Below, piece by piece: positions 2,232-43,092 of a stretch of DNA of 61,851 nucleotides. The notes under the pieces are model-generated. The model made no database searches. It was not told the origin of the DNA and worked only from the letters and a program-made list of their open reading frames with translations. A program made the translations under genes and the position numbers. The stretch comes from Candidatus Limnocylindria bacterium (GTDB taxonomy: Bacteria > Chloroflexota > Limnocylindria > Limnocylindrales > CSP1-4), in NCBI GenBank assembly GCA_035637675.1, contig DASPWU010000004.1, forward strand, positions 1 to 61,851. Reading direction: 5' to 3'. Position 1 is the first letter of the stretch, and each line of letters opens with the position of its first letter.

Positions 2232-2306
2232 GGGCCGGTAGCTCAACGGCAGAGCAGGCGCCTTTTAAGCGCTTGGTTGTGGGTTCGAGCCCCACCCGGC
2301 TCACCA
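2232..2306 (+). tRNA. tRNA-Lys (anticodon UUU), CCA encoded
   Basis: Hand-folded cloverleaf: acceptor GGGCCGG/CCGGCTC, D stem GCTC/GAGC, anticodon stem GGCGC/GCGCT with loop CTTTTAA, T arm GTGGG-TTCGAGC-CCCAC, discriminator A plus CCA. Confidence 0.9.
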
Positions 2307-7249: not shown

Positions 7250-8041
7250 CTACTCCCAGCGGAACATTCGGGCGGCGAGGCCGGCCAGGACAACCCCCCA
7301 GGCCGCCAGCAATGCCACCGCTGCGGTTGGATCGCCGGCCATCGTGCCGAGCCCGATCCGGAAGGCGTCGGACAGCGCGGCCGCCGGCAGCACCCCCGCG
7401 AGGTCGGCCACGGGCTGCGGCAGGCGGTCCAGGGGCACGATGACCCCGCCCAGGAGGAGCAACAGCAGGTAGAGGCCGTTCGCGCTGGCCAGGGTGGCCT
7501 CGGCCCGGAGCGTCCCGGCCATGAGAAGGCCGAGGCCGGCGAAGGCCAGCGTCCCCAGCAGCAGCGCCACGGCCACGACGAACGCCGAGGCACCCGCGCC
7601 GGGCGCCCATCCGAAGAGGGCGACCGCGATTGCCACCAGAACGACGAGCTGCAGTAACTCGACCGCGACGACCGCGGCGATCTTGGCCGCGACGAGTCCC
7701 CAGCGGGGCAGCGGCGATCCGCCCAGACGCTTGAGCACGCCGTAGGCGCGCTCGTAGCCGGTCGCGATCCCCAGGCTCACGAGGCTCGTCGAGATCACGG
7801 CCAGGGCGGCGACGCCCGGCAGCAGGAAGTCGATCGGCCGGCCGGTCCCCGTCGGCAGGACGTCCACGGAGCCGAAGAAGACGAGAAGGGCGACGGGGAT
7901 CACCAGCGTGACGAGCAGGTTCTCGGCTCGGCGCGACGTCAGCCGCAGCTCCATCGAGGCCTGGGCGAGCGTGGCTCGCCAGGCTGGAGCAGCGCCCGTG
8001 GCGGCGGGCGTCCAGCGCGCCGGCGTCGAGCTCTCGCTCAC
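7250..8041 (-). CDS. ABC-2 type transporter permease
   Basis: 263 aa from GTG 8041 with six hydrophobic helices, as in ABC-2 (DrrB/NosY-type) permeases. The GTG overlaps the TGA of the upstream ATPase gene (GTGA). Confidence 0.75.
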   Translation of the reverse strand: MSESSTPARWTPAATGAAPAWRATLAQASMELRLTSRRAENLLVTLVIPVALLVFFGSVDVLPTGTGRPIDFLLPGVAALAVISTSLVSLGIATGYERAYGVLKRLGGSPLPRWGLVAAKIAAVVAVELLQLVVLVAIAVALFGWAPGAGASAFVVAVALLLGTLAFAGLGLLMAGTLRAEATLASANGLYLLLLLLGGVIVPLDRLPQPVADLAGVLPAAALSDAFRIGLGTMAGDPTAAVALLAAWGVVLAGLAARMFRWE

Positions 8042-9045
8042 GGCATGTGCCCGCCCTCGCGCTCTTCCTGGCTCTCCGCCGAGCCTTCGGACGCCTTCTC
8101 CGCCAGGAGCTCCAGGTAGCGCTCCTCGAGCGTCCCGCCCCCCGTCGTCACCTCCACAACGAGCAGCTGGCGGGACTCGCACCAGGTCGCCAGTCGGCTG
8201 ACGAGCCCGGGCGCCGGGCTCACGCCGTCGAGGCGATAGTGGCCCCCGCCCTCGTCGACCAGATCCGTGCCGGGCGCGCCGTCCGACAGCCGCTCCGCAA
8301 GCGCATGGCGCTCCGCGTGCGACAGGGGAGCCTCCAGTCGGAATCGAAAGCGCGGCGCGGCGGCGGCCGTCAGCTCGGCGGGGGAGGCGAGCGCGATGAG
8401 CCGGCCCGAATCGATGAACGCGACGCGGTCGGCCAGCCTGTCGACGTCGGCCAGGTCGTGGGTCGTGAGCAGCACCGTGACCCCGGCTACGCGAAGCTCG
8501 CCGATGAGCTGGCGAGTGGCGACCTTGGCCGCCGGGTCCATGCCCGTCGTCGGTTCGTCGAGGACGACCAGCTCCGGTCGCCCGACCAGGGCCAGGGCCA
8601 GCCCGAGGCGCTGCTTCTCCCCGCCCGACAGGACCTTGTAGCGCGTGCCGGCGACGTCTCGGAGGCCGACGACGTCGAGCAGCTCATCGGGGGCGTGCGG
8701 AGCTGCGTAGAAGCTGGCGAACAGCCGCAGGATCTCGGCCGGCGTGGCCTGTGGGTAGACGCCACCGGCCTGGAGCATGAGTCCCAGCCGGGCGCGCAGG
8801 CTGGGCGCGTCGCGGGCCGGGTCCAGGCCGAGCACGCGAACGTCACCGGCGTCCGCCCGGCGGTAGCCCTCGATGATCTCCACCGTCGTGGTCTTGCCGG
8901 CGCCATTGGGGCCGAGAAGCCCGAAGATCTCTCCGCGCCGGACCTCGAACGACAGGCGGGCGACGACGTCCCGGCCGGCATATCGCTTGACCAGGCCGCG
9001 GAGGGCGATCGCAATCTCGGTGGTGTCGGACGGGTTGTCGGTCAT
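8038..9045 (-). CDS. ABC transporter ATP-binding protein (DrrA-like, with C-terminal extension)
   Basis: Walker A GPNGAGKTT, signature LSGGEKQRL, Walker B LVVLDEPTTGMD and H-loop TTHD. There is an extra domain of about 100 aa at the C-terminus. The ATG overlaps the stop of the thioredoxin gene (ATGA). Confidence 0.9.
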   Translation of the reverse strand: MTDNPSDTTEIAIALRGLVKRYAGRDVVARLSFEVRRGEIFGLLGPNGAGKTTTVEIIEGYRRADAGDVRVLGLDPARDAPSLRARLGLMLQAGGVYPQATPAEILRLFASFYAAPHAPDELLDVVGLRDVAGTRYKVLSGGEKQRLGLALALVGRPELVVLDEPTTGMDPAAKVATRQLIGELRVAGVTVLLTTHDLADVDRLADRVAFIDSGRLIALASPAELTAAAAPRFRFRLEAPLSHAERHALAERLSDGAPGTDLVDEGGGHYRLDGVSPAPGLVSRLATWCESRQLLVVEVTTGGGTLEERYLELLAEKASEGSAESQEEREGGHMP

Positions 9046-9485
9046 CCGCCGATGGCTGCGTACTGGCGCTCGAAGTCCGCGGCCGTCAGCTCGCCGATCT
9101 GGCGTGACCGGACGATGCCGTCGCGGTCGATGAAATAGGTCTGCGGCGGGGCGAGGACGGTATACACGCTGGCCCGTGAGCCGTCCGGGTCGGTGAGGGA
9201 TGGCCAGGCGGCACCCTCGGTGGCCGCGAACCGGCGGGCCGCGCCCGCGTCGTCATCGAAGACCACTCCCAGGATCGCGAGGCTCGGATGCCGGGCCTGG
9301 GCGTCCCGGAAGAGCGGAAACTCGGCCCGACACGGGACGCACCAGCTGGCCCAGAAGTTCACGATCACCGGTTTGCCCCGCAGGTTCGCCAGGCTCATCG
9401 ACCGTCCATCGAGCGTGGTCCCGCTCAGTGGTGGCGCCTGATCGCCGACGCGGACGCCGACCGGGCTCGGCGGGGTCACGCCCAC
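9042..9485 (-). CDS. TlpA/ResA-like thiol:disulfide oxidoreductase (thioredoxin fold)
   Basis: Has the WASWCVPCRAEFP CxxC motif. Coordinates are the minimal GTG-started ORF. The same frame upstream (to 9617) encodes a signal-anchor helix, RFDRRQLIGLAIIATIAIIAIVAV, with no ATG/GTG/TTG, so the true start is probably further upstream and non-canonical. Confidence 0.75.
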   Translation of the reverse strand: MGVTPPSPVGVRVGDQAPPLSGTTLDGRSMSLANLRGKPVIVNFWASWCVPCRAEFPLFRDAQARHPSLAILGVVFDDDAGAARRFAATEGAAWPSLTDPDGSRASVYTVLAPPQTYFIDRDGIVRSRQIGELTAADFERQYAAIGG

Positions 9486-9617: not shown

Positions 9618-10745
9618 CTACTTGAGCGTGATCGTGCCGGTCATGTTCGCGTGCACCGTGCAGACGAACGGATACTGCCCAGCCGGCAGCGCCGGCACCT
9701 GGTAGACGCGGGTCGCCACGCCGTTGAAGATCTCGCCCCGGAATGCCTCGCTGCCGTCCGCCTTCCTGATCGCCACGTCGTGAGGCGTGCCCTGGTCCTG
9801 GTTCTCGAACGCTATCGTGAACGGCTTGCCGGCCGGCCCGGTCACGTCCGCGGTGGTGAACGCGATGGCCTGCGCGACGATCGTGACGTCGGCCGCCGGC
9901 TTGCCCGCGGGCGGGGAGCCCGGCGCCCCCGATGCTCCCGCGGAAGCCGCGGGGCCCGACCCACTAGCCTCGCCCGGTGCGGGCGACCCGATCGCGGCGC
10001 CGGCACTGCCGGCGCTGCCTTTGGGCGGCAGGATGCCGGCCTGCAGGATCGCCGCGCCGACGATGACGATCGTGAACAGCGCGAACGTTCGCAGCGGGAA
10101 ACCCGGCGCCGGCGGGTTGCGCAGGTGGCCCGTCCGGTCGGCCTCCTCCGTCAGACGGTACTCGAGGCGGGCCGCGCGCCACCAGCCCACGAGCGCGATG
10201 ACGAGGCAGATGAACCCGGCCAGGATCATCCAGCCGCCCACGACGAGACCGGCCAGCAGGACCGCCACGCCGACGGCCGAGGTGAACGGCAGGAAGGTGG
10301 GGCCCGGGACGTGGACGCCCGGCGGCGGACCGCCGTGCTCGACCGTAATGGCCATCGTCCCGGAGCCGGCCACGTGCTCGTATTCGTGCATCCCTTCGCG
10401 CAGCCAGTACAGCAGCGCAAGAACGAGCGCTGCAACACCCAGGAGGGCGCCGGCCGGCCCGACCACCAGGCCGAACAGCACCAGCGCCGTCCCGGCTGCG
10501 CCGAAGAACGGCGCGAACGAGGGCCCTGGAGCGTGGACCCCCGGCGGCGCCACGGACACTCGCCGTCCGAACCCGCGCTGGCGCGGGCCGACGCGGGTGT
10601 ACGCCCAGACGAGCCAGACGAGCCACAGCACGACCGAAGCCAGCAGGGCGATCGGGATCAGCCCGACCAGGGCCCCCCAGTCGGGGATGACGAGCTTGGC
10701 CGTCAGGTCCAGGAACGCGTTCCAGAGCTGCTGCAGCTTCTCCAT
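9618..10745 (-). CDS. polytopic membrane protein: duplicated CtaF-like (oxidase subunit IV C-half-like) module fused to a C-terminal type-1 cupredoxin domain
   Basis: 375 aa. An internal repeat of PPGVH-x-PGP-S/T-F-x-PF plus two TM helices ending in EY covers about nt 10371-10550 and 10149-10331. A sixth TM helix and a G/S/A/P-rich linker follow. The 91-aa C-terminal domain (9621-9893) has ligands H (TPHDV) and C-x2-H-x2-M (FVCTVHANM). Confidence 0.8.
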   Translation of the reverse strand: MEKLQQLWNAFLDLTAKLVIPDWGALVGLIPIALLASVVLWLVWLVWAYTRVGPRQRGFGRRVSVAPPGVHAPGPSFAPFFGAAGTALVLFGLVVGPAGALLGVAALVLALLYWLREGMHEYEHVAGSGTMAITVEHGGPPPGVHVPGPTFLPFTSAVGVAVLLAGLVVGGWMILAGFICLVIALVGWWRAARLEYRLTEEADRTGHLRNPPAPGFPLRTFALFTIVIVGAAILQAGILPPKGSAGSAGAAIGSPAPGEASGSGPAASAGASGAPGSPPAGKPAADVTIVAQAIAFTTADVTGPAGKPFTIAFENQDQGTPHDVAIRKADGSEAFRGEIFNGVATRVYQVPALPAGQYPFVCTVHANMTGTITLK

Positions 10746-10775: not shown

Positions 10776-10952
10776 CTAGACGTCGTCCGGCGTGCCGACG
10801 ACGAGGGCATACGCGGCCAGCCCCATCGCGATCCCCAGGGCAGCCAGGGTCGTCGTGCCGCCCGCATCACCGCTCAGGATGAAGTAGACGATGGCGATTA
10901 CGACGAACACTCCCCCAACCGCGAACGCGTTTCTGGGGTGCTTGAACCGCAT
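10776..10952 (-). CDS. small 2-TM oxidase-associated subunit (resembles the N-terminal half of actinobacterial CtaF/subunit IV)
   Basis: This ORF is not in the supplied track because it is under 60 aa. My translation is MRFKHPRNAFAVGGVFVVIAIVYFILSGDAGGTTTLAALGIAMGLAAYALVVGTPDDV, 58 aa. The ATG lies 9 nt after the ctaE stop and the stop lies 30 nt before the next gene. Confidence 0.6.
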   Translation of the reverse strand: MRFKHPRNAFAVGGVFVVIAIVYFILSGDAGGTTTLAALGIAMGLAAYALVVGTPDDV

Positions 10953-10961
10953 GTCGGTCGC

Positions 10962-11591
10962 CTACCTCGAGGGGATGATGTAGAGGATCGAGAACAGGGC
11001 GATCCAGACGACGTCCACGAAGTGCCAGTAGATGGACGTTGCCTCGACGGCGTCGTGATGGCGGGAGGTGAACTGGCCGCTCATCGCCCGGAAGAGCACG
11101 ACGCTGAGCATGATCACGCCGCCCAGGACGTGCGCGCCGTGGAACCCGGTGAGGGTGAAGAACGTGGTTCCGAACGTGCCGTCGGAGAGGCCGAACCCGA
11201 GCTGGCTGTAGTCGTAGGCCTGGCCGATGAGGAACGTGACGCCCATCACAAGGGTGACGGCGATCGCCCGGATCAGGCCGCGACGATCGTCCCGTCGGAT
11301 CGCCCACACGCCCAGCTGGCAGGTGAATGAGCTCGACACGAGGATGATGGTGAGGACGGCCGCCAGCCAGGGCTCGGCGTGCAGGTTGAAGCGCTCGGCC
11401 AGGTGCTCGCCCACCTCGGCAGCCGACGGCGGCCAGGTCGGCGCCGTGGCCCGCACGTTGAAGTAGGCCGCGAAGAGTCCGGCGAAGAACATCACCTCCG
11501 AGCAAATGAACAGGATCATCCCCAGGATCGGGTTGCTGATCCCGTGACGGGGCAGGTCGGCCAGGGCCCCATCGTGCGCCGTCTGGGGCAT
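10962..11591 (-). CDS. ctaE: cytochrome c oxidase subunit III
   Basis: 209 aa from ATG 11591 (MPQTAHDG...). Blocks GMILFICSEVMFFAGLFAAYF, FFTLTGFHGAHVLGG and YWHFVDVVWI are typical of Cox3. It starts 14 nt after the ctaD stop. Confidence 0.9.
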   Translation of the reverse strand: MPQTAHDGALADLPRHGISNPILGMILFICSEVMFFAGLFAAYFNVRATAPTWPPSAAEVGEHLAERFNLHAEPWLAAVLTIILVSSSFTCQLGVWAIRRDDRRGLIRAIAVTLVMGVTFLIGQAYDYSQLGFGLSDGTFGTTFFTLTGFHGAHVLGGVIMLSVVLFRAMSGQFTSRHHDAVEATSIYWHFVDVVWIALFSILYIIPSR

Positions 11592-11605: not shown

Positions 11606-13237
11606 TCACGAGTGGCCGCCGTGGCCGCCCGTCCGGCCATGCCGGGCGTCGAACACCGGACGCTCGGACCTGATCTCCGGCAGATGGTCGAAGTTGTAGG
11701 GCGGCGGCGGTGAGCTGGTTGCCCACTCCAGGGTGTTGCCCTCCCACGGGTCGTCGCCGGCCGGCTCACCGTTCCGCAGCGAGATGAGGACGTTCCACAG
11801 GAACGGCAGGGTGGAGGCGGCGATGATGATGCTGCCGACCGTCGCCACGAGGTTGAGCTGGTTCCAGCCCGCGGTCGACGCGTAGGTCGCGATCCGGCGG
11901 GGCATCCCCTCCAGGCCCAGGATGTGCATCGGAAAGAAGGTCATGTTGAACCCGATGAGCATGAGCACGAAATGAATCTTGCCGAGCGTCTCGTTGAGCA
12001 TTCGACCGCTCATCTTGGGGAACCAGTAGTAGACGCCAGCGAATACGCCGAAGACGGAGCCGCCGAACAGGACGTAATGGAGGTGAGCCACGACCCAGTA
12101 CGTGTCGTGGAGGGCGAAGTCCACCGGCACGGCGGAACTGAAGGCGCCGTTGATGCCGCCGATCAGGAACATCGTCAGGAAGCCCAGGGCGAACAGGAGC
12201 GGCGTCGAGAACGTCAGCTGGCCGCGGAAGAGCGTGGCGATCCAGTTGAACATCTTGACCCCGGTTGGCACCGCGATCAGGAACGTCATGAAGCTGAAGA
12301 ACGGCAGGTAGACCGTCCCGGTCGTGAACATGTGGTGGGCCCAGACCGAGAACCCCAGGGCCCCGATGCCGGCCGTCGCGAACACGAAAGCCTTGTACCC
12401 GAACAGCGGCTTGCGTGAGAAGACGGGCAGGACCTCGCTGACAATGCCCATTGCGATGAGGATCATGATGTAGACGGCCGGGTGGGAGTAGAACCAGAAG
12501 ATGTTCTGCCATAGGACGGCGTTGCCGCCGGTCGCCGGATCGAAGAAGTGGCCGCCGTAGTTCCGGTCGATGAACAGCATGATGAGCGCGCTCGCCAGGA
12601 CCGGCGTGGCTAGGAGCACGAGGACGCTGGTCACGAGCGCGGTCCACACGAGGATGGGCATCCGGAACATCGTCATGCCCGGAGCGCGCATCTTGAATAT
12701 CGTGACGAGGAAGTTGATCGAGCCAAGGATGGAGCTCGTCCCGATGAGCGTCACCGCCACGAGCCACAGGTCCGTCCCCACGCCTGAGTACTTCGACTGG
12801 GCCAGCGGGCTGTAGCTCGTCCAGCCCTCCGCGGCCGCGCCGCCGGGGACGAGGAAGCCGGCCAGGATGATGATCCCGGCCAGGGGCAACATCCAGAACG
12901 ACAGCGCGTTGATCCGTGGGAAGGCCATGTCCGGCGCCCCGATCTGGAGTGGCACGACGTAGTTCGCGAAACCGGCCAGGATCGGGATGATGAACAGGAA
13001 GAGCATGAGCGAGGCATGCATCGTGAACAGCTGGTTGTAGAGATCCGGGGAGAACAGCTTGTTCTCCGGCACGGCCAGCTGGCTGCGAACGCCAAGCGCA
13101 AGGACGCCGCCGATGAAGAAGAACACGAACGAGTTGACGAGGTACAGGATCCCGATCTTCTTGTGGTCGGTGGTGGTGACCCACTCGTAGAGCGCGCTCC
13201 GATAGGTGGCGGCAGGCGTCAGCGCGGTGGTCGCCAT
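11606..13237 (-). CDS. ctaD: cytochrome c oxidase subunit I (A-type haem-copper oxidase)
   Basis: 543 aa. Blocks include HKKIGILYL, WFYSHPAVYIMIL (CuB His with cross-link Tyr), VWAHHMFTTG and HDTYWVVAHLHYV. AAGGAG lies upstream of the ATG. Confidence 0.95.
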   Translation of the reverse strand: MATTALTPAATYRSALYEWVTTTDHKKIGILYLVNSFVFFFIGGVLALGVRSQLAVPENKLFSPDLYNQLFTMHASLMLFLFIIPILAGFANYVVPLQIGAPDMAFPRINALSFWMLPLAGIIILAGFLVPGGAAAEGWTSYSPLAQSKYSGVGTDLWLVAVTLIGTSSILGSINFLVTIFKMRAPGMTMFRMPILVWTALVTSVLVLLATPVLASALIMLFIDRNYGGHFFDPATGGNAVLWQNIFWFYSHPAVYIMILIAMGIVSEVLPVFSRKPLFGYKAFVFATAGIGALGFSVWAHHMFTTGTVYLPFFSFMTFLIAVPTGVKMFNWIATLFRGQLTFSTPLLFALGFLTMFLIGGINGAFSSAVPVDFALHDTYWVVAHLHYVLFGGSVFGVFAGVYYWFPKMSGRMLNETLGKIHFVLMLIGFNMTFFPMHILGLEGMPRRIATYASTAGWNQLNLVATVGSIIIAASTLPFLWNVLISLRNGEPAGDDPWEGNTLEWATSSPPPPYNFDHLPEIRSERPVFDARHGRTGGHGGHS

Positions 13238-13247
13238 CGAATGCTCC

Positions 13248-14396
13248 TTACTTCACCGTGAGCGTGCCCGTCATCGACGGGTGGACCGTGCACACGAATG
13301 GGTACGAGCCGGTCTTGAGAGCCGGCACGTTGTAGGTCGCGTCGGCGGGGCCGGTGATGAGTTCGCCCTTGAACGCCACGCTGCCGTCCGGATTCTTGAT
13401 CTCGACGTCGTGCTGGGTTGCGTTGTCCTTGTTGGTGAAGTGGATCTGGAACGGCTTCTCGGCCGGCGCTTCGAGGGTGGCCTTGTCGAACGCGATGTTC
13501 TGGGCCGCGAGCTCCAGGACGGCGCCGGCGGGTGGGCTGCCAGGCGGTGGGCTTCCGGCGGGTGCGCTGCCGGCCGGCGGGCTCGCGGCCGGAGGAGGCG
13601 ACTTCTTGGCCTCCTCGATCTGCTGCTTGAGCCAGGCGTCGTACTCCGCCCGGGTGACCGCCTTGACCTCGAACGTCATGCCACCATGCCCCGCCCCGCA
13701 CAGCTCGGCGCACTGGCCGCGGAACGTCTGTTCTGCATCGCCCGCGTCGACGGTGAAGTCGAAGTTGTTCTCTTTGTTGGGGTCGGTCACGGGGTTGACG
13801 TCGCGCTTGAACAGGAACTTCGGCACGTAGAAGGCGTGAATGACGTCCACGCTGTGGAGCGTGACGTGGATCGGCTCGCCGACCGGAACGACCATCGTCC
13901 CGAAGACGCCATGTCCCTGCGCGTCGGTCGTGAAGAGCGGCGTCTTTCCGTCATCGCTGAGATAGGCGAAGCTCCAGGCGAACCGCTCGGCGACAGCCCT
14001 GACCCGGACGCCCGGGTGATCGCTCTTGGCCTCGACCGCGTTCAGCGTCTGCCACGAGACGACGAACAGGTACAGGACGATGATCGTAGGGATGATGGTC
14101 CAGATGATCTCGACCAGGTTGTTGCCGTGTGTCTGAGGGGGCAGGTCGGCATCGTCGGGCTTGCGCCGGTAGCGAACGACCGCGTAGATGATGGCGCCCT
14201 CGACGGCCAGGAAGATGAGGACCGCGAGGACGAACACGATGTCGTACAGGGACGAGACTTCCGCGCCCTGGGACGTCGATGCGCTTGGCGGGTAGAGCTG
14301 TGGGAACTGGGAGGCGCATCCCGCCGCCACAAGAGCCAACAGCAGCGAGGCCACGATTGCCGCGGGGCGCGTCCGCTTGTTCCTCTTGATCGGCAT
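13248..14396 (-). CDS. ctaC: cytochrome c oxidase subunit II with C-terminal amicyanin-like cupredoxin domain
   Basis: 382 aa: lipoprotein-like signal (LLALVAAGC), two TM helices and a CuA centre (H...CAELCGAGHGGM). A 28-aa P/A/S/G linker (about 13524-13607) follows. The 91-aa cupredoxin domain (13251-13523) has TQHDV and FVCTVHPSM (C-x2-H-x2-M). Confidence 0.9.
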   Translation of the reverse strand: MPIKRNKRTRPAAIVASLLLALVAAGCASQFPQLYPPSASTSQGAEVSSLYDIVFVLAVLIFLAVEGAIIYAVVRYRRKPDDADLPPQTHGNNLVEIIWTIIPTIIVLYLFVVSWQTLNAVEAKSDHPGVRVRAVAERFAWSFAYLSDDGKTPLFTTDAQGHGVFGTMVVPVGEPIHVTLHSVDVIHAFYVPKFLFKRDVNPVTDPNKENNFDFTVDAGDAEQTFRGQCAELCGAGHGGMTFEVKAVTRAEYDAWLKQQIEEAKKSPPPAASPPAGSAPAGSPPPGSPPAGAVLELAAQNIAFDKATLEAPAEKPFQIHFTNKDNATQHDVEIKNPDGSVAFKGELITGPADATYNVPALKTGSYPFVCTVHPSMTGTLTVK

Positions 14397-14572: not shown

Positions 14573-14710
14573 GACGCCGCGGTCGCGTGGCAGGTTCGTA
14601 GCGGAGCGCGCCGCGGTCGCGTGGCAGGTGCGTAGCGGAGGGCGCCTCGGTTCCGTGACAGGATGGGCGGCGGAGGGCGCCTCGGTTCCGTGGCAGGATG
14701 GGCGACGATG
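14573..14710. repeat. four-unit tandem array (34/34/35/35 bp) in the ctaC / ctaG divergent region
   Basis: Units start at 14573, 14607, 14641 and 14676. Units 1/2 differ at 3 positions and units 3/4 at 4. All four share the core CGTG(G/A)CAGG at a 34-35 bp period. The array ends on the ATG at 14708. Confidence 0.9.
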
Positions 14711-15832
14711 ATGGCTCGCCGACCTGTCCGTAGCCGGTTTGCCGGCCGCCGGTTCGCCGTCCGCCGGTTCGCCAGGCGCTGGTTTCGGCGGCCGGCGGCG
14801 CACATCGCCGCCGGACTCGTTCTCGCCATAGGCGTCCTCGGCGGTCTCGCGCCGCCGGTGCTTGCCCACGGGGCGAACGCGCTCCTCCCGCCGGCCCCGT
14901 CCGACTTCCTCTTCGACTGGGCGTTCGATGGCCTCGTGACGATTCCGCTCCTGCTGGTCGGCGCCGCCTACCTGTGGGCGGTCGGACGGGTCGATGCGGC
15001 GCACCCGGGAAACAGGGTGCCCCGCTCGCGGATCGTCGCGTTCCTGGCAGGCCTGGCCGTCATCGAGATCGCCCTCCAGTCGATCATCGAGCGCTACGAC
15101 ACGACGCTGTTCTCGGTCCATATGGTCCAGCACATCCTGCTCACGCTGGTTGCGCCGCCACTCCTCGCGCTCGGCGCCCCGATCACGCTCGCGTTGCGCG
15201 TCGCCCGGCCCGAGTTCCGACGCCGCGTCGCCCTGCCGATCCTGCACAGCCGGTTGCTCCGATTCCTGACGTTCCCGGTGGTGGCCTGGCTGCTCTTCGC
15301 CAGCGTCATGTGGGGCACCCACTTCTCGCCCATCTTCAACGAGTCGCTCGAGCAGCCTCTCGTCCACCAGCTCGAGCACCTCGCGTACCTCGTCGCCGGG
15401 CTGCTGTTCTGGTGGCCGGTCGTTGGCGTCGACCCCAGCCCCTGGCGGATCCCGAATCCGGTCCGGGCCATGTACCTGTTCCTGCAGATGCCCCAGAACA
15501 CGTTCCTCGCCCTGGCTATCTACAGTGCCGCCGCTCCGCTCTATCCGCATTACGCAGCGATTCGCATCCGATGGGGGCCCGACCCGCTGATGGATCAGCA
15601 GATCGCGGGCGGCCTCATGTGGATCGTCGGGGATGTCGTCTTCATCGTGGCGATCGTTCTCACCGTCGTCGGGTGGATGCGGTCCGAAGAGCGGGAGGCG
15701 CTGGGGCGCGAGCGCCGCGAGGATGCCCAGATCGCCGCAATCCGCGCCCGGGAAGCCGCCCTGGCGGACAGGCTGGCCGCCGAGCGGCTGGGCGAGGATC
15801 GGGCCGGCGACGAGCGGATCGGAGGGCCGTAG
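14708..15832 (+). CDS. cytochrome c oxidase assembly factor, Caa3_CtaG family membrane protein
   Basis: Polytopic protein with LFSVHMVQHILLTLVAPPLLALGAPITLALR and FLQMPQNTFLALAIY, as in Bacillus-type CtaG (copper insertion). Transcribed divergently from the oxidase operon. The start could be ATG 14708/14711 or the track's ATG 14663. Confidence 0.8.
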   Translation: MMARRPVRSRFAGRRFAVRRFARRWFRRPAAHIAAGLVLAIGVLGGLAPPVLAHGANALLPPAPSDFLFDWAFDGLVTIPLLLVGAAYLWAVGRVDAAHPGNRVPRSRIVAFLAGLAVIEIALQSIIERYDTTLFSVHMVQHILLTLVAPPLLALGAPITLALRVARPEFRRRVALPILHSRLLRFLTFPVVAWLLFASVMWGTHFSPIFNESLEQPLVHQLEHLAYLVAGLLFWWPVVGVDPSPWRIPNPVRAMYLFLQMPQNTFLALAIYSAAAPLYPHYAAIRIRWGPDPLMDQQIAGGLMWIVGDVVFIVAIVLTVVGWMRSEEREALGRERREDAQIAAIRAREAALADRLAAERLGEDRAGDERIGGP

Positions 15833-29822: not shown

Positions 29823-30800
29823 ATGACTGCCGCGCGCAGCCTGCGCCAGCTGCCCGATCGTGCGCTCCGGTCGACGTTCCTGACGCTGTCGCGACGCCGC
29901 GGGCTGGGCAGGCTGGCCACGCGTCTGCCGGTGACCAGGTCGCTGGTCGCCCGCTTCGTGGCAGGCGAGACGCTCGACGAGGCGCTCGACGCCCTCGATC
30001 GGCTCCGAGCCGCCGGCCTGCGGACCACCGTCGACGTGCTCGGCGAGTCGGTCGACACCGCGGCGGCCGCCCGATCCGCGGCGGGTGCGTACGTCGAGGT
30101 GCTGGATGGGCTTGCTGCCCGCGGCCTGGACGGGAACGTCAGCCTGAAGCTCACCCAGATGGGCCTCGACGTCGACCCCGCTCTGGCCCGCGAGAACGTG
30201 GGGCGGATCGTGACCCGAGCCGCCCACCACGGCTCGTTCGTCCGGATCGACATGGAGGACCATTCCAGGACCGACGCGACGCTGGATCTGTGGCGGGCCG
30301 TCCGGCCGCTCAACCGTGCGTCGGGCGACACGGGCGTGGTCATCCAGGCCGCCCTCCGGCGGAGCCCGGCCGATCTCGATTCGATCATCGCCGAGCAGGG
30401 CCGCGTCCGGCTGTGCAAGGGCGCCTACAACGAGCCGGCATCGGTGGCCTTCGTCGACCGGGCGGAGGTGGACCGCGCGTACGCCGGGCTCATGGAACGG
30501 CTTCTCCGCGACGGCACGTTCCCGGCCATCGCCACGCACGACGAACACCTCATCAGGAGGGCCATCCGGTTCGCCCGGGAGGCCGGCATTGTTCGCGACC
30601 GATTCGAGTTCCAGATGCTGTACGGCGTCCGCCGCGATCTCCAGGACCAGCTCCGCCGGGCGGGCTACGGCGTGCGCGTCTACGTCCCGTTCGGGACGGA
30701 GTGGTATCCGTACTTCATGCGCCGTCTCGCAGAGCGTCCGGCCAACGTCGCGTTCGTCCTGCGCAGCGTGCTGCGGGAGAAGCGCAGCCCCGGCGAATAG
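29823..30800 (+). CDS. proline dehydrogenase (monofunctional PRODH)
   Basis: 325 aa. Blocks are VSLKLTQMGL, VRIDMEDH, RLCKGAY.EP, ATHD, FQMLYGVR and VYVPFG.EWYPYFMRRLAERPAN. Confidence 0.9.
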   Translation: MTAARSLRQLPDRALRSTFLTLSRRRGLGRLATRLPVTRSLVARFVAGETLDEALDALDRLRAAGLRTTVDVLGESVDTAAAARSAAGAYVEVLDGLAARGLDGNVSLKLTQMGLDVDPALARENVGRIVTRAAHHGSFVRIDMEDHSRTDATLDLWRAVRPLNRASGDTGVVIQAALRRSPADLDSIIAEQGRVRLCKGAYNEPASVAFVDRAEVDRAYAGLMERLLRDGTFPAIATHDEHLIRRAIRFAREAGIVRDRFEFQMLYGVRRDLQDQLRRAGYGVRVYVPFGTEWYPYFMRRLAERPANVAFVLRSVLREKRSPGE

Positions 30801-30830
30801 CCGCGCCGGTCGGCCGAATGGCGGCGACGG

Positions 30831-31343
30831 TCAGCCGAGCGCGTCCCGAAGCTGTGCGGCGTGCTCCTCGAGATGGCCCACCACGAACCGCTCGGTCGCC
30901 TCTGCAAGTGGCATCTCGCCGCGCGTCGAGTGGATCCCGAGCCGACCGGCCTCAGCGGCGTTCAGCTCCGACAGCCGCCGCTCCAGGCGATCGATGGTCG
31001 AATCGATCCGGTCGAACAGCTCGCGCGCCGGCAACGTCCGATCGCGCTCGATCGTCGCGATGCGCAGCTCGTTGGTGACGACCCTGCCGAACGGCGCAGC
31101 CTCGACCGGCGAGGCGAGGATGCGCTCGAGCTCGCCCAGCCAGAACGGCAGCATCTCGGCGACGTGGGCAAGGACCTCCGGCGGGCCCCAGTGCGCCTCG
31201 GGCTCCGTGCCGAACCGCTCGGCCAGCGGCCAGGGCTCGCCTGCCATGACCGCCGGCCGCAGGTCACGGAGGGCGCGCCGGGTGCGCCGCAGCCGCTCGA
31301 GCTGATCGGCCAGGGGCTCGGCCTTGATGGCGGGTTGGTTCAT
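30831..31343 (-). CDS. DinB-family (DinB_2-like) protein
   Basis: 170 aa from ATG 31343. It is helical with conserved His positions (VLAHVAEM, VGHLEEHAAQL) typical of the DinB/YfiT metal-binding four-helix bundle. Confidence 0.6.
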   Translation of the reverse strand: MNQPAIKAEPLADQLERLRRTRRALRDLRPAVMAGEPWPLAERFGTEPEAHWGPPEVLAHVAEMLPFWLGELERILASPVEAAPFGRVVTNELRIATIERDRTLPARELFDRIDSTIDRLERRLSELNAAEAGRLGIHSTRGEMPLAEATERFVVGHLEEHAAQLRDALG

Positions 31344-31479
31344 GATCTGTCGATGCCTCACGGCTGCGCTTGACGCCTCGGACGGGCCTTTCATACTGGC
31401 CACAACCGACGGGCGCGACCAGTGTCGCACCGTCCACCCGCTCCCGCGCGCCGCGCGCCATGCACCGGAGGAAGCGTCG

Positions 31480-32658
31480 ATGACGCAGATCCTGCCACCC
31501 ACCAGCCAGGGTGCCGCCAACCAGTCCGGCGCCGTACTCAACAAGGACGCCTACGCCGAGGCCCAGGACTTTCTGCCCCTCAAAGGCATCGACCACGTCG
31601 AGTTCTGGGTCGGCAACGCTCGCCAGGCGTCGGCCTACTACCGCGCCCTGTGGGGCTTTACGCCGATCGCCTTTGCGGGTCTCGAGACGGGGATTCGCGA
31701 CCGGGCGAGCTATGTCATGCGCCGCAACGACATCACCTTCGTGTTCACGGCACCGTTGACGCCGGACGGCGAGATCGCCGACCACGTCCGGCGCCACGGA
31801 GACGGCGTCCGCGACATCGCCTTCGCCGTCGACGACGCGGGGTCGGCCTTCCACGAGACGACGTCGCGCGGGGCGGTGGCGGCTATGGAACCCACAGAGC
31901 TCGACGGAGGCGAGGACGGCGTGCTCAAGCGCTCGGCCGTCCGGACCTACGGCGATGTCCGCCACTCGTTCGTGGACCGGAGCGGCTACCACGGCGTGTT
32001 CGCCCCCGGCTACCGCAGGGTCAAGAAACCGGCCCGAGCAGCGGAGGGGCTGAGCCTCCTGGAAGTCGACCACTGCGTCGGCAACGTCGGGCTCGGCCAG
32101 ATGGACGAGTTCGTCGCGTTCTACCGCGACGTGTTCGGCTTCAGCCAGCTCATCCACTACGACGACAAGGTCATCCACACCGAGTACAGCGCCCTGATGT
32201 CGAAGGTCATGACCGACGGCAACGGGCGGATCAAGTTCCCGATCAACGAGCCGGCGACCGGCAAGAAGAAGAGCCAGATCCAGGAATTCCTCGATTGGTA
32301 CCTCGATCCGGGGACCCAGCACATCGCGCTCCGGACGGAGGACATCGTCGGGACGGTTCGTCGGCTGCGCGAGAGCGGGGTCGAATTCCTCGGGCTGCCG
32401 CACGAGTACTACGCGACGCTCGCCGATCGCGTGGGCGACGTCGGCGTCCCGATCGAGACGCTCGAGGAGCTGGGCATCGAGGCCGATCGCGACGAGGAGG
32501 GCTACCTGCTCCAGATCTTCACCCGGCCGGTGCAGGATCGGCCGACCTTCTTCTTCGAGATCATCGAGCGGCACGGCTCGCGCGGCTTCGGCGTCGGCAA
32601 CTTCAAGGCCCTGTTCGAAGCGATCGAGCGCGAGCAGGCGAAACGCGGCAACCTCTAG
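31480..32658 (+). CDS. hppD: 4-hydroxyphenylpyruvate dioxygenase
   Basis: 392 aa from ATG 31480, preceded by GGAGGAAG. Blocks are IDHVEFWVGNA, VDHCVGNV, SQIQEFL..Y.G.G.QHIAL, LLQIFT and FFEIIER.G..GFG.GNFKALFEAIE. Confidence 0.9.
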   Translation: MTQILPPTSQGAANQSGAVLNKDAYAEAQDFLPLKGIDHVEFWVGNARQASAYYRALWGFTPIAFAGLETGIRDRASYVMRRNDITFVFTAPLTPDGEIADHVRRHGDGVRDIAFAVDDAGSAFHETTSRGAVAAMEPTELDGGEDGVLKRSAVRTYGDVRHSFVDRSGYHGVFAPGYRRVKKPARAAEGLSLLEVDHCVGNVGLGQMDEFVAFYRDVFGFSQLIHYDDKVIHTEYSALMSKVMTDGNGRIKFPINEPATGKKKSQIQEFLDWYLDPGTQHIALRTEDIVGTVRRLRESGVEFLGLPHEYYATLADRVGDVGVPIETLEELGIEADRDEEGYLLQIFTRPVQDRPTFFFEIIERHGSRGFGVGNFKALFEAIEREQAKRGNL

Positions 32659-32677
32659 CCGGCCAACGTCGTCGCCC

Positions 32678-32986
32678 ATGGCATCCGTCGCGGACCTGGT
32701 CGAGGAGCCGGCCCTCCGGCAGCTGGTCGGTCCCGAGCCGTACGCCGAGGGCCTCGCGCTCGCTGATGCCGGATCCGTCCGATTCGTCGAGTTCGGGCCG
32801 GTTATGGTGGTGGCCGAGATTGCCGACGGGTCGCCGAAGCCCCGGGTCGAGCTCGTGTCGCGCAGCGGCGAGCTTGCCTGGCGGTGCGAGTGCGAGGAGG
32901 GCAGGACCGGCCTGGGCTGTCGTCACCTGGCGGCGGCGGGCATCGAGACCTGGCGGCAGTCACCCGCGCGCCGCGGGGAGAAATAG
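32678..32986 (+). CDS. SWIM zinc-finger domain protein
   Basis: 102 aa with WRCECEEGRTGLGCRHL, the CxC-x(n)-CxH SWIM signature. Confidence 0.55.
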   Translation: MASVADLVEEPALRQLVGPEPYAEGLALADAGSVRFVEFGPVMVVAEIADGSPKPRVELVSRSGELAWRCECEEGRTGLGCRHLAAAGIETWRQSPARRGEK

Positions 32987-33017
32987 GTCGGTCACCAACC
33001 AGCCGGAGGAACTGACA

Positions 33018-33446
33018 ATGACCCGCTACGCGCGGATCGCCTTCGCCGGGCTTGCCTGGCTGTTCGTCGCGGCCATCGTCATCCAGGTGTTCCTGATCGG
33101 GCTCGGCCTGTTCGGCGACGTTGCCTACCGCCAGACGCACATCGAGTTCGGCTACTCGATCGGCATCCTGGTGCTGCTTCTGCTGATCGCCGCCCTTGTC
33201 GCCCGGCCTGGACTCCGCACGCTTGGACTGGTGATCGGGCTGTTCGTGCTGTACATCGTCCAGACGCTGCTGCCGAGCGCCCGCCAGGCGTACCCGGCGA
33301 TCGCCGCGCTCCACCCGGTGAACGCCTTGCTGATCTTTGGCCTTTCCCTCTACGTCGCGCGGTCGGCCTTGGCCCTCGCCCGTCTGGGCGGCGAGCCGGG
33401 CGTGGGAGTTGCTCCCGCCGCCGCGCCCCGCGACACCGCCTCGTGA
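33018..33446 (+). CDS. hypothetical 4-TM membrane protein
   Basis: 142 aa from ATG 33018, preceded by GGAGGA. Four hydrophobic helices. No recognisable family. Confidence 0.5.
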   Translation: MTRYARIAFAGLAWLFVAAIVIQVFLIGLGLFGDVAYRQTHIEFGYSIGILVLLLLIAALVARPGLRTLGLVIGLFVLYIVQTLLPSARQAYPAIAALHPVNALLIFGLSLYVARSALALARLGGEPGVGVAPAAAPRDTAS

Positions 33447-33715
33447 TCGAGGCCGAGTGGCGGCTGCCATCCACTTGCCCGCAGCCCTAGCGCTGTCAGC
33501 GCTACTCCCAGGCGAACGCCGGCAACAACGAGCAGGCCGGGCACCCGGCGGACCGTCCTCGTGCTCGCCACGAGCGTGATCGACGCCGATGGGAGGTCGA
33601 AACTGCGCCCATCGCCGGCTTATGTCTTCGCCAGTGGCAGTCTCAACGCTGGAGGCGATGCGCCATGTATCAACGCCCTTCGAGCCGATTGGACATTCTC
33701 CGGGTGGTGAGGGCC

Positions 33716-34177
33716 CTACGCGTGCACACCTAAGACGCGAATGCCGACGCGAACGGCGACCACCCAGATGAGCGCCATGGGGAACGCCAGAAGGAACACC
33801 GGGAGTCCGAGGAACCCAAGTCCCAGGAACCCGAAGAGGATCGCGCCGGCCACGACCTCGCCAGGGCCACTGCCTCCAGCCAGCTGAGCCAGTGCGGCCA
33901 AAGCGAACGCACCGAGCACAACGGCCGATCGAGCGAAACCCACAGCGGAGGCGACGCCGGCACGCCATCCGGGACGGGCGGCATGGTCGGCGAGCAACCA
34001 GCCCAGGAGGGCGGCGAGCGGCGCCATCGCCATCGTGATGGAACGCTCGATCGAGGTCTCCGCTCTCATAATCAAGATGGGAAGCGCCACGAGACTGATC
34101 AAGACGCCGGCGCCGGAGCCAAGCAGTCGGACCCGGGAGAGTCGCCTGGGCCACAACGTGATACTCACGAGTATCAC
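33716..34177 (-). CDS. hypothetical polytopic membrane protein
   Basis: 153-aa ORF made almost entirely of hydrophobic helices (GVLISLVALPILI, LAALLGWLL, VVLGAFALAALAQL, ILFGFLGLGFLGLPVFLLAF). No family recognised. Confidence 0.4.
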   Translation of the reverse strand: MILVSITLWPRRLSRVRLLGSGAGVLISLVALPILIMRAETSIERSITMAMAPLAALLGWLLADHAARPGWRAGVASAVGFARSAVVLGAFALAALAQLAGGSGPGEVVAGAILFGFLGLGFLGLPVFLLAFPMALIWVVAVRVGIRVLGVHA

Positions 34178-34252
34178 AATACATCGAGCCGTGACATGTC
34201 AATGCGCGCTTCTCATCAAGTGAAGGGACCGATTGGTCCGGTCTAGACTCGG

Positions 34253-35272
34253 GTGATGAGGATTGCCCATGTTCGAGAGCGTCACGGTCCAGTCGGAACG
34301 TCCTGGCGGCTGGCGGCCGCGCTCGACGACGATGGTGCGACCTGGCTCGACCTCGATCTTGCCCGGCGCCGCCTCGTCCGCCGCCACGCGGAGCGGGCCC
34401 ACAACAGCGCCCTGTTCCGGCAGCCGATCACGACGCTGGACGACCTGCTCGCCGCGGGCCATCGCGTGGCCGCGCTCAAGGATGTCGTCGATGGCTTCGA
34501 GCCAGGCGGCGAGGACGACGACGACGCGGTGCTGGACGCCGCCGACCTGGCCTTCGGACCACCGATCCTCCGGCCGCCGACCTTGCGCGACTTCTACGCC
34601 TTTGAGCGCCACGTGGCCACGATGTGGCAGCGGCGGGGTGGCGAGGTACCCCAGGCGTGGTATCGGCTGCCGATCTTCTACTTCGGGAACGTGTCGGAGA
34701 TCCGCGGCCCGGACGACCCGGTGTGGGCGCCGCGCGGGTCGGCAGAGCTGGACTTCGAGCTGGAGGTCGGCGCCATCGTGGATGCGTCGGCCCGCGACCT
34801 AGACCCGGATCGCGCGGAGGACGCGATCGGGGGCTACTGCATCCTCAACGACTGGTCGGCGCGCGACCTCCAGCGCGACGAGACCACCGTTCGCCTGGGC
34901 CCGGCCAAGGGCAAGGACTTCGCCACGACGATCGGTCCGTGGCTGGTCACTCCGGACGAGCTGACCGACGCTCGCGCGCCGGGCTCGACCGGGCCGGACC
35001 TGGCCATGACCGCTGACGTGAACGGCCAGGCGATCAGCCACGGGACGTGGTCCGCCGCACAGTTCAGCTTCGGTCAGATGCTCGCCCGGGCATCGGCCGA
35101 CGCTCTCCTCCGGCCGGGCGACCTCATCGGCAGCGGAACGGTGGGGACGGGCTGCCTGCTCGAGGTCAAGGACGAGACCCTGGGCCGGTACCTGCAACCG
35201 GGCGATGCCGTCACGCTCCGGATCGAGCGCCTGGGTGAGCTCCGTACGCCGATCGTGGAGCGCCCCGCGTGA
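34253..35272 (+). CDS. fumarylacetoacetate hydrolase (FAH) family protein
   Basis: 339 aa with start at GTG 34253 or ATG 34256. FAH-fold blocks are ELDFELEVGAIV, NDWSARDLQ, KGKDF and GDLIGSGTVG. It lies in a cluster with hppD and hmgA. Confidence 0.8.
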   Translation: MMRIAHVRERHGPVGTSWRLAAALDDDGATWLDLDLARRRLVRRHAERAHNSALFRQPITTLDDLLAAGHRVAALKDVVDGFEPGGEDDDDAVLDAADLAFGPPILRPPTLRDFYAFERHVATMWQRRGGEVPQAWYRLPIFYFGNVSEIRGPDDPVWAPRGSAELDFELEVGAIVDASARDLDPDRAEDAIGGYCILNDWSARDLQRDETTVRLGPAKGKDFATTIGPWLVTPDELTDARAPGSTGPDLAMTADVNGQAISHGTWSAAQFSFGQMLARASADALLRPGDLIGSGTVGTGCLLEVKDETLGRYLQPGDAVTLRIERLGELRTPIVERPA

Positions 35273-35288
35273 TAGCGTCGTTGCGAAC

Positions 35289-36422
35289 ATGACCGTTCCG
35301 ACGGCAGCGTCCCACTCAGCCGGCGTGCCCGTGCCGGATCTCCCCGCCGGGCTCCAGACGCCGTGCCTGGTGGTCGATCTCGATGTCGTCGACCGCAACG
35401 CCCGACGGCTGCAGGACGAGCTCGACCGGCGTGGCGTGCGCCTGCGGCCGCACGTCAAGACCCACAAGAGCGTCGCGCTCGGGCGGCTCCAGCTGGAGAG
35501 CGGCGCCGCCGGTCTCACGGTTGGCACACTTGGCGAAGCGGAGGTCATGGCGGCGGCCGGCCTCAACGACCTATTCCTCGCGTATCCCCTCTGGGCCGAA
35601 GGTGCGAAGGCCGCCAGGTTGCGCGCCCTGCACGAGTCGATCGGGCTGATCGTCGGCGTCGACTCGCGGGCCGGCGCCGAGCGGCTGGCCGCGGCAGTTG
35701 CCGGGACGAAGCGGCCCCTGCGGGTGGTGATCGAGCTCGACTCGGGTGGGCACCGAACCGGCGCCGGCAATCCCGGAGAAGCGGTCGCCGTCGCACTCGC
35801 CGCGCAGAAGCTCGACCTGCACGTGCTGGGCGTGTTCACTCATGGCGGGCACAGCTACGCGGGTCCCGACGCCGGCGCCCCGGCGGCAGCCGACGAGGTG
35901 CGATCCCTCGGCCAGGCGGCGGATGCGCTCAGCGCGGCGGAGATCCCGGTGGAAGTCGTCAGCGCGGGATCGACGCCGACGGCCGTCGACGCCGCCACGG
36001 GCCAGGTCAACGAGATTCGCGCCGGGACGTATCTGCTCGGCGACCGGCAGCAGGTCGCGCTGGGGTCCATCTCGCCGGACGGCATCGCCCTCCACGTCGC
36101 GGCGACGGTCGTCAGCACGACCGTTCCGGGCCAGGTCATCCTGGATGCAGGAGCGAAGTGCTTGACGAAGGACCTGCCGCCGTACCTCGACGGCCACGGC
36201 CTCCTGCCGGCCTACCCGGAGGCCTTCATCGAGCGGCTCTACGACTACCACGGCGCGACGCGGATTCCAGACGGCCAGGCTGCACCGGCGCTTGGCGAGA
36301 TCGTGGCCATCGTTCCCAACCATGTCTGCCCGGTGGTCGACCTGTTCGACTCGTTCGTGGCGGTTCGGGGCGGCGAAATCGTCGGTCGCTGGCCGGTGGA
36401 CGCCCGAGGCCGCTCCGGCTGA
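35289..36422 (+). CDS. alanine-racemase-fold PLP enzyme (D-threonine aldolase / DSD1 D-serine dehydratase-like)
   Basis: 377 aa from ATG 35289. TPCLVVDLD..NA, the PLP lysine in RPHVKTHKS and a C-terminal beta domain (VPNHVCP) match the D-TA family. Confidence 0.7.
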   Translation: MTVPTAASHSAGVPVPDLPAGLQTPCLVVDLDVVDRNARRLQDELDRRGVRLRPHVKTHKSVALGRLQLESGAAGLTVGTLGEAEVMAAAGLNDLFLAYPLWAEGAKAARLRALHESIGLIVGVDSRAGAERLAAAVAGTKRPLRVVIELDSGGHRTGAGNPGEAVAVALAAQKLDLHVLGVFTHGGHSYAGPDAGAPAAADEVRSLGQAADALSAAEIPVEVVSAGSTPTAVDAATGQVNEIRAGTYLLGDRQQVALGSISPDGIALHVAATVVSTTVPGQVILDAGAKCLTKDLPPYLDGHGLLPAYPEAFIERLYDYHGATRIPDGQAAPALGEIVAIVPNHVCPVVDLFDSFVAVRGGEIVGRWPVDARGRSG

Positions 36423-36552
36423 CCCGAGTGAACCCTCAGGCGACGGGCGATCTCGGGAAGGAGCCGATCCTCACGACGCGGACCGCCGGGACGGCCTCGG
36501 TCACGGTTACCGCAGGAATGGGCGGCGTAGACTCGGGCCGTCAGGAGGTTCG

Positions 36553-43057: not shown

Positions 43058-43092
43058 CGACGGTGCAGGATGCCTGACACCCGGATCGCTCG

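Follow-up and report, generated by a model that had tools for sequence, protein, structure and literature searches.

The window analysed here, the whole 61,851-nucleotide stretch of contig DASPWU010000004.1 from a Candidatus Limnocylindria bacterium (Chloroflexota), carries on its minus strand a terminal oxidase (cta) operon in which the subunit II gene, ctaC, extends past the CuA domain into a C-terminal cupredoxin that is predicted to bind type-1 copper. Judged from its sequence, the enzyme is best described as an A2-type caa3-like oxidase with its cytochrome c domain exchanged for a type-1 copper cupredoxin. The explanation that accounts best for the sequences and structural models, and that we hold to be probable, is that the cupredoxin replaces cytochrome c and that electrons would be fed to the oxidase via this tethered copper; the direction of transfer and the partners named below are deduced from sequence comparison. 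The gene was divided into the following parts:

13248..14396, minus strand: ctaC, oxidase subunit II with C-terminal cupredoxin, 382 amino acids, ATG start (Pfam, NCBIfam and an alignment of 42 homologues)
13617..14009, minus strand: CuA domain of subunit II, about residues 130-260
13524..13607, minus strand: linker rich in Pro, Ala, Ser and Gly (P/A/S/G), K264-G291, 28 amino acids, codons read directly (KKSPPPAASPPAGSAPAGSPPPGSPPAG)
13251..13523, minus strand: predicted type-1 copper cupredoxin domain, residues 292-382, 91 amino acids (Pfam, structural model and ligand conservation)
13410-13412 (H329), 13290-13292 (C369), 13281-13283 (H372) and 13272-13274 (M375), minus strand: predicted type-1 ligand codons

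Profile searches placed three Pfam domains in the single ctaC reading frame, namely COX2_TM (PF02790; residues 33-115, E = 1.1e-15), COX2 (PF00116; residues 166-247, E = 1.2e-10) and Cupredoxin_1 (PF13473; residues 294-381, E = 1.4e-11), and the product passed the CoxB equivalog TIGR02866 of NCBIfam with 157.2 bits against a cut-off of 147.7. A chance motif or a spurious open reading frame (ORF) was ruled out by these matches, by a GC content at third codon positions (GC3) of 0.89 and by the more than 2,600 homologues retrieved. The N-terminus is probably a signal or lipoprotein peptide with Cys27, and two membrane helices were placed at residues 42-75 and 93-121 in the full-length model. Codons for all CuA ligands were present (H187, C229, E231 as the backbone ligand, C233, H237 and M240), giving a complete binuclear set H...CxExCx3Hx2M. 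All of these ligands were invariant in the 42 aligned homologues, which were 52-96% identical to CtaC, and so was W141, which we take, by analogy with W121 of Paracoccus, to be the putative electron-entry Trp. The linker varied in both length and sequence in the same alignment, and its residues 270-289 scored below 50 in the predicted local distance difference test (pLDDT) of the full-length model. An earlier note on this DNA had described a normal CuA centre followed by a 28-residue P/A/S/G linker, and both were recovered in the codons. From N- to C-terminus, the predicted product is made up of a two-helix anchor, a CuA centre, a 28-residue linker and a 91-residue cupredoxin, and is a complete oxidase subunit II.

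The ligand loop of the C-terminal domain, CTVHPSM, has the same C-x2-H-x2-M spacing as the amicyanin loop CTPHPFM. H329, C369, H372 and M375 were invariant in the 42 homologues, at identities down to 52%, and likewise across 31 domain sequences; the His plus Cys-x2-His-x2-Met set that the earlier note had read in the 91-residue domain was thereby located codon by codon. That note had also proposed a Pfam search for the fusion, which returned the three matches in one ORF given above, and a structure prediction of residues about 290-382. The isolated domain was modelled with AlphaFold2 as an eight-stranded sandwich with a mean pLDDT of 96.1 and the Greek-key beta-sandwich topology of the cupredoxin fold. 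In a Foldseek comparison of this model with the PDB, auracyanins of Roseiflexus and Chloroflexus ranked first (6KOL, 2AAN and 1QHQ; template-modelling scores 0.82-0.85), followed by numerous amicyanin entries, and a probability of 1.00 was returned for auracyanin, amicyanin, pseudoazurin and azurin. The best PDB sequence match was amicyanin 1ID2 (E = 8.5e-5), and the His, Cys, His and Met of the domain all fell on the 1ID2 ligands in the HMMER alignment. Sequence and model agree in suggesting that the domain binds type-1 copper. Identity with amicyanin itself was ruled out by a score of 18.8 bits against the TIGR02657 equivalog cut-off of 110.2.

The earlier note had placed the blue-copper domain where caa3 oxidases carry cytochrome c, and the core match, the tails of related subunits and the subunit I motif all agree with that placement. 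The PDB sequence closest to the CtaC core was 2YEV_B, subunit II of the Thermus thermophilus caa3 oxidase (E = 9e-31), and the alignment stopped inside the Pro/Ala-rich linker; the cytochrome c domain of 2YEV_B follows there. Ten of the nearest subunit II genes without the fusion (loci L020, L021, L023-L026, L029, L031, L063 and L075) carried at the same position a cytochrome c tail with one CxxCH, and came from Ardenticatenales, Thermomicrobiales, Dehalococcoidia, Thermoflexales, Gaiellales, Conexibacter and one Sericytochromatia metagenome-assembled genome (MAG). CxxCH was absent from CtaC and from every other product of the oxidase operon, as previously noted, and the defining feature of caa3 oxidases, a CxxCH domain at the C-terminus of subunit II, is missing here, the C-terminal domain being a Cupredoxin_1. 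A c-type cytochrome hidden in the window was ruled out: both CxxCH strings in its 61.8 kb lay in wrong-frame or antisense ORFs, which overlie a gene of the pyruvate:ferredoxin-oxidoreductase family and a cyclase/AAA gene. The earlier note had held that a haem c donor encoded adjacent to the oxidase and co-purifying with it would speak against its reading. The window contained no c-type cytochrome gene, and none lay within 8-10 kb of the fused operon in 17 loci; no Rieske or cytochrome b genes lay beside the operon in L001-L017, where the sole ORFs with CxxCH were an annotated DksA-type zinc finger (L002) and an unannotated 169-residue ORF (L003).

Subunit I and the divergently transcribed assembly factor were identified as follows:

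11606..13237, minus strand: ctaD, oxidase subunit I, 543 amino acids, A2 type (PF00115, E = 9e-163; TIGR02891 above cut-off)
14663..15832, plus strand: caa3-type CtaG assembly factor, divergent (PF09678, E = 4.1e-79; same position in L001 and L002)

The CtaD motif FWFYSHPAVY, in which YSHPAV begins at residue 250, stood opposite FWFFGHPEVY in five actinobacterial A1 structures. A Tyr-Ser pair (YSHP) in helix VI of subunit I, replacing the glutamate of the A1 motif GHPE, is the signature of A2-type oxidases, and the caa3 oxidases of Thermus and Rhodothermus are of this type; the A1/A2 rule is said to be that of Pereira et al. 2001. The enzyme was assigned as a caa3 type with a swapped c domain because of the Thermus-like core, the CxxCH tails of its relatives, the YSHP motif and the CtaG gene.

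The closest PDB subunit I (E about 1e-200) was that of the actinobacterial aa3 oxidase in the CIII2CIV2 supercomplex (for example from Mycobacterium smegmatis, 6HWH and 6ADQ), and an extra membrane protein of the window weakly resembles subunit IV/CtaF (PF12270) of the actinobacterial aa3 enzymes. These differ in being of A1 type (FGHPEV) and in having a CtaC that lacks a carrier domain and is fed by dihaem QcrC. Membership of the actinobacterial aa3 group failed for all three core subunits (CtaC 196.5 against 250, CtaD 741.5 against 880 and CtaE 171.2 against 190; cut-offs of NCBIfam NF050116, NF050117 and NF050119). The comparison with caa3 in the earlier note therefore stands, and its comparison with actinobacterial aa3 and QcrC is less apt, given the A1 motif and the failed cut-offs.

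Downstream of ctaC the minus-strand operon continues with ctaD, ctaE, a 58-residue ORF and a 375-residue polytopic membrane protein. The last of these ends in a second cupredoxin, 55% identical to that of CtaC, which the earlier note had missed:

10962..11591, minus strand: ctaE, oxidase subunit III, 209 amino acids (PF00510, E = 5.4e-41)
10776..10952, minus strand: two-helix membrane protein, 58 amino acids, unannotated (positional homologues)
9618..10745, minus strand: subunit-IV-like polytopic membrane protein, 375 amino acids (PF13473, E = 5.6e-10; weak PF12270)
9621..9890, minus strand: second predicted type-1 copper cupredoxin, with H322, C362, H365 and M368 (codons checked)
9042..9485, minus strand: TlpA/ResA-like periplasmic thioredoxin (AhpC-TSA and Redoxin; ResA/DsbE/TlpA matches)

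The product of 9618-10745 consists of a duplicated PPGVHxPGPxF hairpin, a Gly/Ser/Ala/Pro linker of about 45 residues and the C-terminal cupredoxin. Its match to PF12270 was weak (20.5 bits against a gathering threshold of 26.9, over residues 150-188 only), and matches in homologues were 'weak' or 'faint', but P0329, P0330 and P0334 have PF12270 on record. The two-cupredoxin operon was kept in 16 of 16 related loci examined (L001-L016), with H322, C362, H365 and M368 invariant throughout. A Lys/Arg-rich loop precedes the last hydrophobic segment, and by the positive-inside rule the second cupredoxin would therefore be on the outer side of the membrane, where CuA also lies.

The start of ctaE is probably the ATG at 11589-11591, chosen because of the end of ctaD and the lengths of homologues (209-229 amino acids); the longest ctaE ORF reaches 11747 and overlaps ctaD. 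Homologues of the 58-residue ORF were present at the same position in 12 of the 16 related loci (63-69 amino acids in L001 and L002), and no Pfam match was obtained for it; this two-helix protein is probably a small oxidase subunit. The TlpA/ResA-like gene occupied the same position in L001, L002 and L086, and its product probably keeps copper-site cysteines reduced during assembly. Directly after the cta operon, at 7250-9485 on the minus strand, the thioredoxin gene is accompanied by genes for an ABC ATPase and an ABC-2 permease, likewise in L001 and L002, an arrangement that recalls, in layout alone, the NosFY-type ABC systems of copper-enzyme maturation.

A candidate for the electron donor was found in a family of proteins of about 356 amino acids that begin with a membrane helix, contain a single cytochrome c domain and end in a cupredoxin of the same subfamily. 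The copper domain of this cytochrome c-cupredoxin is 44-53% identical to the two cupredoxins of the window. Exactly one CxxCH was present in 119 of 119 members examined, and H303, C343, H346 and M349 were conserved in at least 97% of them. The gene was the fourth of an operon in six loci (L083, L087, L088, L089, L090 and L171), in the order ferredoxin/flavin oxidoreductase, split cytochrome b (242 + 202 amino acids), Rieske protein, cytochrome c-cupredoxin and Kelch propeller. The operon and the window genes used to relate it to the present organism are:

Locus L083, 126-3232: complex III operon, Rieske/split-cytochrome-b with cytochrome c-cupredoxin (same order in L087-L090 and L171)
Window, 15-1193: aminotransferase, first gene
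Window, 1204-2220: 2-hydroxyacid dehydrogenase, second gene

The oxidoreductase gene (Fer4_20/Pyr_redox_2) precedes the operon in the five loci that extend upstream (L087-L090 and L171); its end overlaps the cytochrome b start by 4 nucleotides in four of the five, with a larger gap in L171. The Kelch beta-propeller that follows the cytochrome c-cupredoxin has about 487 amino acids.

These contigs are, by gene order and identity, from relatives of the window organism, because the first two genes of the window are collinear with them and 66-77% identical. In the related contigs the aminotransferase/2-hydroxyacid dehydrogenase pair lies 3-6 kb downstream of the complex III operon, and collinearity with L090 ends at the tRNA-Lys gene at 2232-2306. 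For calibration, the proline dehydrogenase of the window was 67% identical to that of L002, a two-cupredoxin oxidase locus. We infer, at the level of the lineage, that a complex III with cytochrome c-cupredoxin would be encoded in this genome. The lineage probably still uses haem c, since the complex III of related contigs has a monohaem cytochrome c with a cupredoxin. The occurrence of cupredoxins in a redox-enzyme context on both putative partner complexes argues for a role in electron transfer over one in oxidase assembly.

In the proposed path, electrons would pass from quinol through the Rieske/cytochrome b complex to the haem c of its membrane-anchored monohaem cytochrome c, and from there to the type-1 copper of the third cupredoxin, which is tethered to the same protein. 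The next acceptor would be the oxidase-tethered type-1 copper of subunit II, of the subunit-IV-like protein or of both. The CtaC cupredoxin, held at the outer face of the membrane on its flexible 28-residue linker, would accept one electron at a time and deliver it to CuA, probably via W141, and on through haem a to the haem a3-CuB site and O2; the second cupredoxin, on the linker of about 45 residues of the subunit-IV-like protein, would probably act as a second acceptor or as a relay. Transfer from complex III to complex IV would then run from copper to copper between tethered domains, with no diffusible carrier involved, and with 28-45 residues the linkers could reach across tens of ångströms, as a swinging-arm hand-off would need. 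Type-1 copper potentials are typically +200 to +400 mV and bracket that of CuA, so that the relay steps would be thermodynamically reasonable. That Limnocylindria-type Chloroflexota have such a carrier-free complex III-IV link, built from three tethered type-1 copper domains, is put forward tentatively, as a possibility on which we would not yet rely.

Several observations weigh against this account. No single contig or named MAG was found to hold both complex III and the fused oxidase, and lineage relatedness is the sole link between them. Gene order at the left edge of the window is not strongly conserved, and the complex III genes may be located elsewhere or be missing; when metagenomes were scanned with the window aminotransferase, neither complex III nor cta genes were present in any of the 80 loci obtained. 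As to the copper domain, FtrB (8VUK) and a Bacillus anthracis protein (4HCF), which are non-redox copper or iron-uptake proteins, were among the Foldseek matches, and the Pfam family Cupredoxin_1 includes proteins of that kind. Both cupredoxins of the window have Asp after the first His ligand (QHDV, 13407-13412; PHDV, 9777-9782), a position taken by Asn (PHNV) in most homologues and in the classical cupredoxins, and the Asp might tune the site.

The separation of complex III and oxidase on different contigs also speaks for a related explanation, namely that the tethered cupredoxins feed CuA but draw on another donor, which could be a periplasmic dehydrogenase (amicyanin accepts electrons from methylamine dehydrogenase), an alternative complex III (the donor proposed in the case of auracyanin) or an external reductant such as Fe(II) (as for rusticyanin and sulfocyanin). 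The closest structures, auracyanin and amicyanin, both partner non-bc donors, and two oxidase-tethered domains could serve two donors. We nevertheless regard this as unlikely: in a related lineage a Rieske/cytochrome b operon encodes a cytochrome c to which a cupredoxin of this subfamily is fused, and genes for methylamine dehydrogenase, alternative complex III or iron oxidation were seen neither in the roughly 40 genes of the window that were scanned nor next to the operon in the relatives.

Two further roles would leave the cupredoxins out of electron transfer, and both are disfavoured because the ligands are invariant in three redox-enzyme hosts and the domain takes the position of cytochrome c. 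Copper handling, with the cupredoxins acting as chaperone, buffer or insertase for CuA and CuB, could be suspected from the TlpA-like thioredoxin and CtaG in the neighbourhood, where no Sco or PCuAC gene was seen, and from the non-redox copper binders covered by PF13473 and present among the structural matches (4HCF, 8VUK). Known CuA chaperones use Met/His or CxxxC sites, which differ from the canonical, invariant His/Cys/His/Met set in an amicyanin-length loop found here; moreover, the domain replaces cytochrome c position for position and is also fused to the cytochrome c of complex III, a cytochrome for which no copper has to be inserted, and we give this role little credence. Still less is given to a mainly structural domain, a docking or supercomplex module or a leftover, with CuA reduced directly by a cytochrome c, whether soluble or of complex III. 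Such reduction is conceivable with W141 and the CuA site intact and with a cytochrome c encoded in the complex III of relatives, but four ligands that are invariant at 52% overall identity and recur in three host proteins are hard to explain without metal binding, and the flexible low-complexity linker argues for a mobile rather than a fixed domain.

Among known systems, the A2-type caa3 oxidases (Thermus thermophilus, 2YEV; Rhodothermus marinus) share with the window enzyme the succession of anchor, CuA, linker and C-terminal one-electron carrier, the YSHP motif in subunit I and a caa3-type CtaG. The carrier here differs in being a type-1 cupredoxin without CxxCH, a second carrier is present on the subunit-IV-like protein, and subunits I and III, which are fused in Thermus, are encoded by separate genes. 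Auracyanins of Chloroflexus and Roseiflexus (2AAN, 1QHQ and 6KOL), from the same phylum, are the best structural match; they are blue copper proteins tethered to the membrane, and their proposed role is to shuttle electrons between a quinol oxidoreductase as donor and the reaction centre or oxidase as acceptor. They are 20-22% identical to the window domain and are separate proteins of 123-139 residues (solved chains) with their own anchor, whereas the window domain has 91 residues, an amicyanin-length loop and a covalent place in the oxidase. With amicyanin of Paracoccus the domain has in common the C-x2-H-x2-M loop and the alignment of all four ligands; amicyanin, however, is a soluble protein, and methylamine dehydrogenase (mau) genes were not among the scanned genes of the window. 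On sequence and model, the carrier domain is auracyanin-like in structure and amicyanin-like in its loop, and is a member of neither family.

Archaeal oxidases offer the nearest functional parallels. In the SoxM complex of Sulfolobus acidocaldarius, reportedly described with its sulfocyanin SoxE by Lübben 1994 and by Komorowski and Schäfer 2001, the membrane-bound type-1 copper protein SoxE is said to link a Rieske/cytochrome b module to the CuA subunit II in place of cytochrome c. SoxM differs in being archaeal and of another oxidase type, in having SoxE as a separate subunit and in lacking haem c; the Pfam family SoxE was also matched by 23 of 147 representative proteins that carry the window-type cupredoxin. 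In haloarchaeal ba3 (B-type) oxidases, halocyanin is covalently fused to subunit IIa (PMC3128077). Here too a blue-copper donor is joined to a membrane subunit of the oxidase that it serves, with the differences that the enzyme is an archaeal B type, that the copper domain is N-terminal to the single-helix IIa and that there is no second tethered domain.

When 5.8 billion proteins were searched, the more than 2,600 CtaC homologues included the three-domain architecture in 120 of the best 120, and their source names were merely "cytochrome c oxidase subunit II". In a survey with one genome per species of GTDB, the full-length fusion was present in 15 species representatives, none of them an isolate. 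Fourteen were closely related MAGs labelled Chloroflexota, Candidatus Limnocylindrales, 'uncultured Chloroflexia' and, in one case, Patescibacteria; the fifteenth, labelled Frankiaceae, was more distant, at 40% identity. The locus labelled 'Patescibacteria group' (L010; 50% identity) had the full two-cupredoxin operon, and the one labelled 'Frankiaceae' (L017; 40% identity) had the cupredoxin on CtaC only; either binning or label errors or horizontal transfer would account for these two labels, and for L017 a second, separate swap may also be considered. The closest named relatives pointed to the class Limnocylindria, and the fusion is common in uncultured Limnocylindria-like MAGs; the exact CtaC of the window had no entry in the collection. 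A fusion of bacterial subunit II with a cupredoxin was not described in the full-text literature searched, subscription journals being outside its reach, and the halocyanin-IIa fusion was the sole precedent met there. The bacterial fusion is real, widespread, generically annotated and uncharacterised, and archaeal blue-copper donors are already known.

The cupredoxin subfamily as a whole comprised 2,543 cluster representatives at E <= 1e-3 among 1.84 billion, many of which were anchored in the membrane and carried 2 to 8 or more cupredoxins in tandem. Examples with 3, 4 or at least 8 tandem type-1 cupredoxins joined by Pro/Gly-rich linkers are P0121, P0122, P0127, P0133, P0244 and the gene at 10001-11329 of L086. 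In an Actinomycetota MAG, P0122 is the last gene of a genuine caa3-type cta operon, in the slot held in the window by the subunit-IV-like cupredoxin gene. By analogy, the tandem-cupredoxin membrane proteins may be copper counterparts of multihaem 'wires'.

Elsewhere in the window, an Rfam scan gave only two tRNAs:

2232-2306, plus strand: tRNA-Lys(UUU), at the end of the collinearity with L090 and L093
7120-7194, plus strand: tRNA-Met(CAU), 4.8 kb beyond tRNA-Lys

The interval between them holds an MFS transporter and one unassigned ORF and could be a point of rearrangement or insertion. An amino-acid catabolism cluster at 29823-37776 (plus strand) contains genes for proline dehydrogenase, a 4-hydroxyphenylpyruvate-dioxygenase-like protein, fumarylacetoacetase and a D-serine-dehydratase-like protein, and a weak homogentisate-dioxygenase-like gene. 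A two-subunit 2-oxoacid:ferredoxin oxidoreductase is encoded at 39580-43593 (plus strand) between CBS-domain proteins, and a 1092-residue adenylate/guanylate cyclase fused to an AAA ATPase-type regulator at 46842-50120 (minus strand).

How electrons travel from quinol oxidation to the terminal oxidase is one of the features that define a respiratory chain. Known links are cytochrome c, either soluble or fused to the oxidase (caa3), a rigid dihaem bridge (Actinobacteria) and blue-copper carriers that are separate proteins, such as auracyanin, sulfocyanin, halocyanin and plastocyanin. A type-1 copper tethered to a bacterial A2-type oxidase would, if confirmed, add a further solution, and the second tethered copy and the matching domain of complex III strengthen the case for copper-based feeding. 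A link made of three cupredoxins would be unlike a soluble cytochrome c, the fused cytochrome c of caa3 or the rigid dihaem QcrC bridge, and the membrane proteins in which 3 to 8 or more cupredoxins follow in tandem would then be 'copper wires', comparable to multihaem cytochromes. The 91-residue domain should be easy to express and would provide a simple testable system, and the plain annotation "cytochrome c oxidase subunit II" would no longer be adequate for such genes. The host class is abundant and uncultured in soil and freshwater, the organism of the window coming from soil, and its oxidase would represent a natural experiment in which haem was swapped for copper in the same structural slot, with a bearing on the trade-off between iron and copper.

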